From Escherichia virus TH42: a stretch of DNA of 64,000 nt. Where the stretch lies: sequence record MT446413.1. The stretch is one strand, 5' to 3'. The notes below the pieces were generated by a model. The model made no database searches. It was given only the letters and a program-made list of their open reading frames with translations, and was not told the DNA's origin. The position numbers were made by a program, and so were the translations under genes. Numbering within the stretch: the stretch's first letter is position 1; each line of letters opens with the position of its first letter. Shown here piece by piece: positions 59,714 to 63,479 of the stretch.

Positions 59714-60034
59714 TCAGATAGATTTGTCCTTATGTAAACGATATACTTCAGTAGCCATACAAGCAATACGCTCGTCATGAGGGAGATGCATACCAGTAGA
59801 GCCATTCCACCCATTGAACTCTGAATCAAAGAATCCAATAGGCTCAGGATACATCTCTTGCAAAGTGGTTAAGTCATCAGCCACTTGTTGCCATTTATTA
59901 TCAGACCAGATTGGGTCATCCAACCAATAATACAAATAGGAGTGGATAAGCATCTGCGTTCTGTGTCGTTTAATCACTTCAGCAGGACTAATCTCGTTTC
60001 CGTTACCAGTCCTAAATGTATTATCATTAATCAT
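59714..60034 (-). CDS. hypothetical protein (106 aa)
   Basis: Track ORF on block strand. Confidence 0.5.
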   Translation of the reverse strand: MINDNTFRTGNGNEISPAEVIKRHRTQMLIHSYLYYWLDDPIWSDNKWQQVADDLTTLQEMYPEPIGFFDSEFNGWNGSTGMHLPHDERIACMATEVYRLHKDKSI

Positions 60035-60934: not shown

Positions 60935-61129
60935 TTAGATAACCTTGTGCTTATAGATGCTAGGGTTGAAGTAGTGCAACCAGTTTATATACTGTTTCTG
61001 TTCGAGGTAGTGTCTGCAATCATGACAAAAAGCATGACCCAAACCCGTTTCCTCGTTCAGTTTGAAATTGATAAGAAGCTTATGCTTTTTGCATAAGCTA
61101 CATGCTTTAGTGATTTTCACGTAATGCAT
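60935..61129 (-). CDS. small zinc-ribbon-like protein (start moved to internal Met)
   Basis: Track ORF 60935..61243 overlaps thyX by 137 nt; MHYVKITKACSLCKK...CHDCRHY from Met at 61129 reduces overlap to 23 nt. Confidence 0.35.
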   Translation of the reverse strand: MHYVKITKACSLCKKHKLLINFKLNEETGLGHAFCHDCRHYLEQKQYINWLHYFNPSIYKHKVI

Positions 61130-61757
61130 CCCATGAGATTGGGAAAAGTTTACGAAGCTCTTCATCAATAGTTGATGCGAACAAACGCACCTCATACTGA
61201 GCATGGTCTGACAGACGTTGACGACACAACTCTGACCAACCAAATAAAGAACCTGTCCACACCCACTCAGTGATCATGCCCTGAGGCAATACGAACCGAG
61301 CTTGCTCTGGAGCGATAAACTTAATCAATTCATCATACGACTCAAGAGCTGTTTCATATGCTCGATTAATCAGAACTAGTGCAGAGTTTTGTGCTCCTGT
61401 GGTGAGGAGATTCCCCGCACCTGCATGGAGGTCCGAAGGTCTTTCAAAAATCTCTTTAGGGATGAAGAGTTCAACTGCTCCATCTTTATACCGCCGGGAC
61501 ATTTCGTTCCACGAGAATCCAACTTGATGCTTGCCCAACTGTCTCGCAATTGCGATTGGCGCTTTGCATCGGAAGCTAATTGTTGGATGACGGAATGGTG
61601 TGACATGCTTTTCTCTGGCAAGGAACTTGATAAGGCGTTCATCTCGTTCATTTAACTCTCCTTCACGAGTGACCCCAAAGGAAACTCGAGCTGCATTAAC
61701 AACAGATTTATCAGAACCCATTGCTTCGATTAGTGTTGCTTGTAATTGTTCATTCAT
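61107..61757 (-). CDS. thyX: FAD-dependent thymidylate synthase ThyX
   Basis: VVNAARVSF, HVTPFRH and RQLGKHQVGFSWNEMSRRY match the ThyX signature region, with KHQ where RHR is usual (recalled consensus). Confidence 0.65.
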   Translation of the reverse strand: MNEQLQATLIEAMGSDKSVVNAARVSFGVTREGELNERDERLIKFLAREKHVTPFRHPTISFRCKAPIAIARQLGKHQVGFSWNEMSRRYKDGAVELFIPKEIFERPSDLHAGAGNLLTTGAQNSALVLINRAYETALESYDELIKFIAPEQARFVLPQGMITEWVWTGSLFGWSELCRQRLSDHAQYEVRLFASTIDEELRKLFPISWDALRENH

Positions 61758-61771
61758 CCTTGAACTCTTCC

Positions 61772-61984
61772 TTAATAGTAAACTTTTGGTACTACCACAA
61801 AGAAACCAGTGGCTGTCATATATGCACGGTGGATTGAAATCTTCGAATCACGACCTATCTTCTTGAGAGCACGTTTGGTGCATCGTGCAGTTTTACGAGT
61901 AGCGCAAGTAAGAACCCTTGGGTACTCCATCTCTGGATATTTGGAAACAACAGCCCAGAAATACACATCTTTTCCTTGAGTCAT
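61772..61984 (-). CDS. hypothetical protein, tandem paralog (70 aa)
   Basis: FWAVV...RKTARCTKRALKKIG parallels 62000..62215. Confidence 0.45.
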   Translation of the reverse strand: MTQGKDVYFWAVVSKYPEMEYPRVLTCATRKTARCTKRALKKIGRDSKISIHRAYMTATGFFVVVPKVYY

Positions 61985-62912: not shown

Positions 62913-63479
62913 TTAGTAAGACACATCGCCACTAGAGTGGGACATGTTGCTCTTGACGAAGTAACAGAACTTGCCAAGACCTTCATTAATTTCTTGAAGC
63001 ATACTCTGGTCTACTGGATAAGTGCACAAGTCTGAATCAAACTCGTCCATCTTTTCAATGATACACATCAGAGTCATGCACATGTCGGAAAGCATACCGT
63101 CCATGTCGAGATCAGCACTACCTTCTCTGAACCAAGCACAACTAAGATAGCTACTAGCTGTTGCATCCACTTTGATACAGTGATAACGCATTCGCTCAGC
63201 TACTCGGTCTCCTGTTTCACGAGCATAGTCTTCTAATTCATCGAACATACCATGAACACCTTGGAAACCAGCTCCAGAGACGTTCCAGTGGTAATTCTTT
63301 GCTTTGATGTGTAGAAGCTCAAGGTTAGCCTGCACACCGCATAGGATGTGCTCTAGACTGTTACCGCTGATCAGTTTATTCATTCCCTCAAGACGAGAGA
63401 TAGAGGAGTCAGTTGTAGAGAATGGGTTACTAGAACCCACTCGTGTTAGTTCAGGTAAGTCGAAGACATTATTATGCAT
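62913..63479 (-). CDS. Dps/ferritin-like protein (putative)
   Basis: KNYHWNVSGAGFQGVHGMFDELEDYA resembles the Dps N-terminal helix signature (HWNV.G..F..LH...E..Y); recalled consensus. Confidence 0.45.
   Translation of the reverse strand: MHNNVFDLPELTRVGSSNPFSTTDSSISRLEGMNKLISGNSLEHILCGVQANLELLHIKAKNYHWNVSGAGFQGVHGMFDELEDYARETGDRVAERMRYHCIKVDATASSYLSCAWFREGSADLDMDGMLSDMCMTLMCIIEKMDEFDSDLCTYPVDQSMLQEINEGLGKFCYFVKSNMSHSSGDVSY

Follow-up and report, generated by a model that had tools for sequence, protein, structure and literature searches.

A ThyX protein of Escherichia virus TH42 with a conserved K-H-Q triad in place of R-H-R and an apparently remodelled flavin-phosphate site

The stretch of DNA analyzed in this study, referred to below as the window, comprises 64,000 nucleotides of Escherichia virus TH42 (sequence record MT446413.1) with a G+C content of 0.41-0.45. 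With the E. coli podophages TH43, StefiGeyer_Bas88 (Bas88), and ECBP2 of the Gordonclarkvirinae (Kuravirus and relatives), the region shares 96-97% identity. The gene considered here encodes a flavin-dependent type of thymidylate synthase, ThyX, and the following features of the gene and its product are needed for the argument.

61107-61757, minus strand: thyX coding sequence, K-H-Q/SRRY subfamily, 216 amino acids plus stop codon, from the list of open reading frames
61765-61773, minus strand: Shine-Dalgarno-like sequence AAGGAAGAG, 7 nucleotides upstream of the thyX ATG, read from the sequence
61605-61607, minus strand: codon of H51, equivalent to H53 of Thermotoga maritima ThyX, histidine in 60 of 61 clade members
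61524-61532, minus strand: K76 H77 Q78 (AAG CAT CAA), at the position of the canonical R-H-R according to the alignments
61488-61532, minus strand: extended motif K76-H-Q-V-G80-F-S-W-N-E85-M-S87-R88-R89-Y90, with eight residues to the serine and not seven
61488-61499, minus strand: S87 R88 R89 Y90 (TCC CGG CGG TAT), with R88 at the position of T. maritima G89
61242-61244, minus strand: codon of F172, which the pairwise map places at the FAD-phosphate ligand R165 of T. maritima (R190 of M. tuberculosis)
61215-61298, minus strand: dUMP-binding arginine stretch with R154 and R181, the counterparts of R147 and R174 in T. maritima
61296-61298, minus strand: codon of R154 (T. maritima R147), invariant in the 61-sequence clade alignment
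61215-61217, minus strand: codon of R181 (T. maritima R174), invariant in the 61-sequence clade alignment

According to the list of open reading frames and the sequence itself, thyX starts with an ATG at 61755-61757 and ends with a stop codon at 61107-61109. In a Pfam search, residues 8 to 206 of the 216-residue product aligned with positions 1 to 190 of the 191 positions of the Thy1 profile PF02511 (E 1.1e-42), i.e., over the full length and with 146.5 bits against a cut-off of 24.8. The NCBIfam equivalog model for ThyX, TIGR02170, gave 120.9 bits with a cut-off of 87.9, and the PHROG 85 family "thymidylate synthase" matched with an E value of 3.7e-61. The closest solved structures found with phmmer among the PDB chains were the ThyX proteins of Thermus thermophilus (7e-29) and T. 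maritima (4e-26). A monomer model calculated by AlphaFold2 with 61 homologues had a mean pLDDT of 95.8 and a pTM of 0.89; the 50 best Foldseek matches of this model were exclusively T. maritima ThyX chains (TM 0.79-0.84), and the model agreed with T. maritima ThyX with a TM of 0.83 over ~210 residues. Profile matches, fold, and the substrate residues described below place the product of 61107-61757 in the ThyX family, to which an earlier inspection of the DNA (the sequence-only reading) had assigned it. The orthologues in the phages Bas88, Paul, and EP335 already carry the annotation "thymidylate synthase." The one family feature not found in the protein is the literal signature R-H-R-x7-S, which reads K-H-Q-x8-S. 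Two plus-strand open reading frames overlapping thyX (61389-61655 and 61600-61866) were without support and were taken as spurious.

On the same strand of the window, thyX is accompanied by genes for PhoH, a stand-alone Nlig-Ia domain, a thioredoxin, and a protein with weak similarity to the ferritin/Dps type. The Shine-Dalgarno-like element overlaps the stop codon of the upstream open reading frame of 70 amino acids, which indicates that the genes are tightly packed and form one minus-strand unit. In phage Paul, the annotation has a ribosome-binding site at the corresponding position before thyX. A scan around thyX for sigma-70 promoters and terminators gave none above the shuffled background, the scan being based on the sigma-70 consensus and the phages using their own sigma factor. 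Just beyond the end of the window, Bas88 carries a gene for a dCTP deaminase (TIGR02274, 104.8 bits with a cut-off of 92.8), which lies in a block with genes for an unclassified nucleotidyltransferase, a primase-helicase, and a polymerase. A dNMP kinase gene on the other side of the block, at ~49.5-50.1 kb of the window, is named as such solely in the Bas88 annotation and had no match in Pfam or NCBIfam. The annotation of the inspected 47 kb of Bas88 lists no further thymidylate synthase and neither a dUTPase nor a hydroxymethylase. The phage genome has a G+C content of 42%, whereas that of E. coli is ~51%. As side observations, phages of the Gordonclarkvirinae carry an unexplained cluster of genes for an amidoligase, a GlmS-like protein, an ATP-grasp protein, and a gamma-glutamyl cyclotransferase, and a gene near thyX in phage Paul is annotated as an anti-restriction protein.

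The position of the K-H-Q triad was determined by three independent alignments, i.e., by phmmer against the PDB chains of T. thermophilus and T. maritima ThyX, by global pairwise alignment, and with a hidden Markov model built from 121 canonical ThyX sequences. In all three, K76-H77-Q78 aligned with R78-H79-R80 of T. maritima ThyX, and one residue was inserted before S-W-N-E. The motif thus reads KHQVGFSWNEMSRRY in the phage protein and RHRIA-SYNELSGRY in T. maritima ThyX, and in the wider alignment ARQLGKHQVGfSWNEMSRRY stands opposite ARQWFRHRIA-SYNELSGRY. As K-H-Q is a deterministic feature of the sequence, chance is not at issue. The sequence-only reading had allowed for a misremembered alignment, with a normal R-H-R elsewhere in the protein. 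There is no R-H-R tripeptide in any of the 216 residues, and the sole R-H, in R56-H57-P58, aligned with E58-H59 of T. maritima; the observation of K-H-Q at the triad therefore stands.

To describe which residues are kept, lost, or gained, residues were counted in an alignment of 61 sequences of the clade and mapped to the numbering of T. maritima by pairwise alignment. The residues H53, Q75, E86, S88, R90, and Y91 of T. maritima are kept in the phage protein as H51, Q73, E85, S87, R89, and Y90, as are E144, R147, and R174, which correspond to E151, R154, and R181. All nine positions are invariant or almost so in the clade, and they contain every residue known to bind dUMP. The dUMP-binding and catalytic set Q75, E86, S88, R90, Y91, R147, and R174 is present and invariant in the 61 clade members, and the position of H53 is occupied by histidine in 60 of them.

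The residues that hold the flavin show a different pattern. According to a review, the residues of the R-H-R triad form hydrogen bonds with the AMP phosphate, the ribityl moiety, and the FMN phosphate of FAD, and only the first arginine additionally contacts the flavin ring and dUMP. The earlier assumption that the triad binds the phosphate of dUMP thus holds for the first arginine only, and the triad is chiefly an FAD-binding element. The same review names the residue equivalent to T. maritima R165 (R190 in M. tuberculosis, R165 in Helicobacter pylori) as a further ligand of the FAD phosphate. Among the positions that bind the FAD phosphates and ribityl moiety, H77 and T53 are kept in the phage protein, whereas R78, R80, and R165 are replaced by lysine, glutamine, and phenylalanine, respectively. 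In the clade, the R78 position is lysine in 52 and arginine in 9 of the 61 members, the H79 position is histidine in 55 and serine in 6, and the R80 position is glutamine in 40, threonine in 8, lysine in 5, and arginine in only 2. The R165 position is never arginine but tyrosine, alanine, leucine, phenylalanine, or another residue. E58 and N169 do not vary in the canonical set but are unconserved in the clade; the phage protein has arginine and glutamate there, and the N169 position is arginine in 39 of the 61 members. Two residues are gained throughout: the glycine at the inserted position (G80) is invariant in the 61 members, and R88 of the SRRY sequence is arginine in 61 of 61. As the dUMP residues are kept and the ligands of the FAD phosphates are changed, the clade appears to have remodelled its flavin-phosphate site and to have left the substrate site alone. 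A relocation of Arg80 to position 88 might also be considered; it would follow from the co-occurrence of the two changes at the level of the clade only and is weakened by uncoupled viral contigs, since RHR and SRRY occur together in L060, and KHV or KHR is combined with SGRY in L067 and L075.

Two sets of homologues were used to determine how widespread the variant motif is. The first comprised the 120 nearest clusters at 90% identity, whose representatives are 52-99% identical to the phage protein. The triad was KHQ in 119 of them and KSQ in one, and the spacing of eight residues as well as SRRY was found in all (120/120 in both cases). The second set consisted of the 150 best representatives of the clusters at 50% identity, which are ~40-60% identical to the phage protein. 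In 133 of these the motif was readable, the 17 others being left out of the triad count for their inteins or long inserts. KHQ was found in 64 representatives, KHK in 19, RHT in 9, KHT in 8, RHQ in 7, and other triads in the remainder, but RHR at the motif site in none of the 133. The spacing was eight residues in 122 and seven in 11 cases, and SRRY was present in 139 of 144 readable representatives. In contrast, all of 120 T. maritima-like clusters had RHR and a spacing of seven residues (120/120 each). The canonical set of 121 sequences, T. maritima included, has arginine at the R165 position in every case, and at position 89, where the clade has the new arginine, glycine in 77, glutamine in 30, leucine in 10, alanine in 2, methionine in 1, and arginine in 1. 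These counts argue that K-H-Q is how the triad normally reads in a large ThyX subfamily carried mostly by phages, and that it is neither a defect of one gene nor a sign of new activity. The signature of this subfamily would be [K/R]-[H/S]-x-[V/I]-G-x3-[N/S]-E-x-S-R-R-Y in place of R-H-R-x7-S-x-R-Y. The search for representatives returned 350 clusters at E ≤ 1e-30 and 6,892 at E ≤ 1e-3, so that the K-H-Q/SRRY clade is a visible minority of the diversity of ThyX.

The thyX genes of the Gordonclarkvirinae are under purifying selection. By the method of Nei and Gojobori, the dN/dS of thyX was 0.06 in comparison with Bas88, 0.13 with Paul, and 0.10 with EP335, with dS up to 1.6, and among the orthologues of the group the range was 0.06-0.15. 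To search for the motif in cellular genomes, 185,579 species genomes were scanned with a degenerate DNA pattern for KHxxGxxWNExSRRY in which the third codon was left free. The scan returned 45 loci, of which all read KHQ, the number expected by chance being ~0.1 by our own estimate. On a 1.79-Mb Spirochaetia chromosome, the K-H-Q thyX lies between a short-chain dehydrogenase gene and pyrD, pyrF/E, and pyrB (assigned by Pfam), and a 186-kb contig of a second spirochaete shows the identical gene order around thyX. In four genomes of Chloroflexota/Dehalococcoidia the gene follows those for pyruvate dehydrogenase E1-beta and E2, and three Poribacteria loci share another common, non-phage neighbourhood. 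The chromosomal enzymes are 42-46% identical to the phage protein, compared to 33% for T. maritima ThyX. The K-H-Q type thus seems to occupy conserved housekeeping neighbourhoods in genomes of Spirochaetia, Chloroflexota, and Poribacteria. Other loci, such as those of Hyphomicrobiales and Novosphingobium, adjoin polymerase and primase-helicase genes and are prophage-like by our reading. In phages, the K-H-Q/SRRY gene adjoins those for a primase-helicase and a polymerase in Erwinia phage Y2 and those for a nucleotide kinase, PhoH, thioredoxin, and ribonucleotide reductase in a Pseudomonas phage; thyX of Roseobacter phage CRP-4 likewise lies in a nucleotide-metabolism neighbourhood.

According to the mutagenesis literature, M. 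tuberculosis ThyX needs the ThyX motif to be active, and no characterized member of the K-H-Q/SRRY subfamily was found among the ThyX enzymes reported as functional. The alteration of three conserved cationic FAD ligands and the need for the motif in M. tuberculosis count against an active K-H-Q form, whose activity is deduced from its conservation. The conservation in the clade, the dN/dS of 0.06-0.15, the retained dUMP residues, and the bacterial chromosomal contexts all favour an active variant, which was one of the options raised in the sequence-only reading and appears to be the best supported of them.

We therefore assign a probability of about 80% to the following explanation: the protein is an active ThyX whose flavin-phosphate site has been remodelled; it converts dUMP to dTMP by methylation and supplies dTMP to an AT-rich phage. 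The substrate pocket would be unchanged and the residues holding the phosphates of FAD would differ: the first arginine of the triad is replaced by lysine, the third is lost to glutamine, a further FAD-phosphate arginine, R165, is lost to phenylalanine, and the new invariant R88 beside the dUMP-binding S87 is added together with the invariant inserted glycine. K76, H77, and R88 may take over the contacts with the flavin or nucleotide phosphates that R80 and R165 make in the canonical enzyme. In the infected cell, the phage dCTP deaminase would form dUTP (or dUMP), the host dUTPase would convert dUTP to dUMP, ThyX would methylate dUMP with methylene-tetrahydrofolate and reduced flavin, and phosphorylation toward dTTP would begin with the phage dNMP kinase. 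The net effect would be a shift of the host dNTP pool to dTTP for a genome of 42% G+C. For the phage itself, thyX would probably be an ordinary gene for the supply of dTMP.

A related explanation is that the protein is a thymidylate synthase with a different handling of the flavin, binding FMN or binding FAD loosely as a co-substrate. It is proposed because two arginine ligands of the pyrophosphate and AMP part of FAD are absent: R80 and R165 are arginine in 121 of 121 canonical sequences, but in the clade the former is arginine in 2 of 61 and the latter in 0 of 61 members, and the canonical-invariant E58 and N169 are unconserved there as well. However, H77 is retained and K76 is present, and the charge could be restored by R88 and, in 39 of 61 members, by the arginine at the N169 position. 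We consider this explanation unlikely.

Still less probable is that the enzyme uses dUMP to form another C5 product, such as 5-hydroxymethyl-dUMP, or uses another pyrimidine nucleotide, and thereby feeds a modification of DNA in the Gordonclarkvirinae. The BASEL study found these phages to be remarkably resistant to restriction-modification without a known modification pathway, and its authors speculate about a covalent modification tied to the dCTP deaminase and the nucleotidyltransferase of the group. The unexplained cluster with the amidoligase, GlmS-like, ATP-grasp, and gamma-glutamyl cyclotransferase genes would fit such a pathway, and the flavin site is remodelled in comparison with every characterized ThyX. 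In one version of this idea, which we regard as quite improbable, the exocyclic-methylene intermediate would be trapped to give 5-hydroxymethyl-dUMP or another C5 adduct, opening an entry to thymidine modification that would explain the resistance to restriction. On the other hand, every residue that contacts the uracil or the phosphate moiety of dUMP is invariant, and the altered specificity for a modified nucleotide suggested in the sequence-only reading thus found no positive support in the sequence. An exotic product is also unlikely in the housekeeping neighbourhoods in which K-H-Q/SRRY occurs in several bacterial lineages, and the type is found in many unrelated phage families beside genes for ribonucleotide reductase, kinases, and polymerases. 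The score for the equivalog model TIGR02170 is above the cut-off, and the gene annotated as anti-restriction in phage Paul offers another route to resistance. Known thymidine hypermodification begins with a hydroxymethylase of the ThyA family. The ThyA-family fold of the base-modification enzymes (dUMP/dCMP hydroxymethylases) was not found for the phage protein, which has the ThyX fold, and no partner genes for hypermodification (kinase, transferases) are annotated in the parts of Bas88 that were inspected.

It is highly improbable that the protein is a degenerate or inactive ThyX retained for a structural or regulatory role. The absence of the literal RHR, together with the mutagenesis literature that deems the motif necessary, would argue for such a role, but the dN/dS of 0.06-0.15, the invariance of the catalytic and dUMP-binding residues down to ~40% identity, the confident full-length ThyX fold, and the housekeeping contexts in bacteria argue against it. 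An alignment artefact hiding a normal RHR elsewhere can be dismissed almost with certainty, as the three alignment methods agree and none of the 216 residues leaves room for an RHR.

ThyX enzymes form homotetramers whose active sites lie at subunit interfaces, and they convert dUMP to dTMP with CH2-H4folate, NADPH, and a flavin. In comparison with known enzymes, canonical ThyX proteins (T. maritima TM0449, PDB 1O26, and T. thermophilus ThyX, 6J61) have the same fold, 33% identity, and the same dUMP residues and H53. The phage protein differs from T. maritima ThyX by R78 to lysine, R80 to glutamine, R165 to phenylalanine, G89 to arginine, E58 to arginine, N169 to glutamate, and the x8 instead of the x7 spacing. 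Gp48 of mycobacteriophage L5 and Thy of Clavibacter phage CMP1, which have been cited as functional, resemble the TH42 protein in being encoded by phages among genes for nucleotide metabolism and replication. Their motifs, however, are RHR-x7-SQRY and RHR-x7-SGRY, and each is only ~30% identical to the TH42 protein; being canonical and this distant, they provide no precedent for the K-H-Q type. The plasmid-encoded ThyX proteins of Borrelia burgdorferi and B. hermsii are also of the RHR type. The Borrelia plasmid thyX genes have been characterized, and A674R of PBCV-1 is an experimentally studied viral ThyX. All of the ThyX proteins that this analysis could tie to experiments (T. maritima, T. 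thermophilus, L5, and CMP1), as well as every close PDB match, are of the RHR type.

Other ThyX variants without RHR share part of these features. ThyX of Roseobacter phage CRP-4 reads KHK-x7-SRRY. In ThyX of Streptomyces phage BoomerJR and Bacillus phage BSTP5 the motif reads W-W-K-Y with a long insert, and the plasmid thyX of Staphylococcus and Enterococcus, located directly after the dihydrofolate reductase gene dfrE, is also of the W-W-K-Y type; like the TH42 protein, all of them have lost the third arginine and kept SRRY. These proteins are 37-43% identical to the TH42 protein and differ from it in the triad, the spacing, or the insertion. PolB, a ThyX paralogue and UMP C5-methylase of polyoxin biosynthesis (PDB 4P5A), has the Thy1 fold and exemplifies a ThyX homologue with a changed use of substrate, but it is much more distant than genuine ThyX (E 1.5e-17 versus 7e-29), does not come from a phage, and has a different gene context.

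Most accounts treat R-H-R as an invariant hallmark of ThyX that is essential for activity, and it has served as a filter for data sets. In the study by Stern et al., sequences with more than two residues dissimilar to the ThyX signature were removed, and this filter may have kept divergent variants like K-H-Q out of view. The RHR-x7-S signature is a historical consensus from early sequences, and Pfam and NCBIfam define the family otherwise. The K-H-Q/SRRY type is, by contrast, a large, strongly conserved subfamily that lacks two of three FAD-phosphate arginines and has a new invariant arginine beside the serine of the catalytic site; its carriers include many phage families and, with the gene on the chromosome, at least Spirochaetia, Chloroflexota, and Poribacteria. 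Related phages already have an annotation for the gene, but a remodelling of the flavin-phosphate site across the whole clade seems to be undescribed and uncharacterized. If confirmed biochemically, this remodelling would broaden the accepted ThyX signature, bear on annotation filters and on the design of inhibitors for the flavin/nucleotide pocket, and offer enzymology a natural experiment in the binding of the flavin.

Several homologues contain inteins, which are inserted exactly between KHQxGF and SWNE or beside H51. Insertion sites of inteins are typically functionally critical sites, which also speaks for a functional motif in this subfamily. The title of a 2004 paper by Liu and Yang on Trichodesmium ThyX mentions distinctive ThyX motifs and an intein. 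The homologues of the TH42 protein likewise bear inteins in the motif, and that paper may describe the same subfamily.

The gene for the flavin-dependent thymidylate synthase (thyX) is accompanied by three ORFs on the same strand of the window:

59714-60034, minus strand, stand-alone NAD-dependent DNA ligase domain Ia ORF, 106 aa (PF22745, E 1.2e-33)
60935-61120, minus strand, small Cys-rich ORF (CxxC ... CxxC), overlapping the thyX 3′ end by 14 nt
62913-63479, minus strand, weakly ferritin-like (Dps-like) protein, 188 aa (PF00210, E 2e-7)

According to the PF22745 match, the 106-aa ORF comprises only the N-terminal NAD+-binding domain Ia and lacks the ligase catalytic domains. Its counterpart in related phages is labelled 'DNA ligase' despite the absence of these domains. 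For the 188-aa protein, the PF00210 match was weak and limited to residues 56-99; the label in relatives is 'DNA binding protein'. A family search with the small Cys-rich ORF gave no match. In phage Paul, another relative, a small ORF labelled 'anti-restriction nuclease' lies downstream of thyX, a few hundred bases away.

Homologues of thyX were also found in spirochaete genomes and on a plasmid:

L008 3001-3657, KHQ-type thyX, Spirochaetia
L049 5976-6632, KHQ-type thyX, Spirochaetia
L082, NZ_CP113048.1 29683-30465, non-RHR thyX, Staphylococcus aureus plasmid

In both Spirochaetia genomes, thyX lies next to genes for pyrimidine biosynthesis, namely pyrD, a fused pyrF/pyrE, pyrB, and a likely pyrC. 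The motif of the plasmid-encoded protein reads W-W-K-Y-V with a long insert, together with SRRY, and its gene lies immediately downstream of dfrE, which encodes a trimethoprim-resistance DHFR. Other S. aureus plasmids and one Enterococcus faecium plasmid gave the same ThyX protein match, with 37.7% identity and an equal score.

Two intein sites were observed among the homologues of the window ThyX (P0121, P0134, P0229, and P0257; also P0176 and P0218). At one site, an intein with an HNH domain is inserted exactly within the ThyX motif, between KHQxGF and S/C-WNE, and the second site is located between the conserved histidine (H51) and TPF. Four homologues (P0141, P0178, P0228, and P0203) carry an HNH-like domain in a variable loop near residue 113.

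The BASEL study described restriction-modification resistance of the Gordonclarkvirinae phages, for which no modification pathway was known. In Bas88, a 96%-identical relative, the following genes lie outside the window:

Bas88, locus L001, 16468-18434 and 20999-27957, dCTP deaminase, nucleotidyltransferase, and ligase/amidotransferase cluster

The dCTP deaminase, whose identity was confirmed, adjoins a 478-aa 'nucleotidyltransferase' without a match in Pfam or NCBIfam. Farther along, a gene cluster encodes a gamma-glutamyl cyclotransferase, a RimK-like ATP-grasp protein, a GlmS-like amidotransferase, an amidoligase, and a COOH-NH2 ligase.
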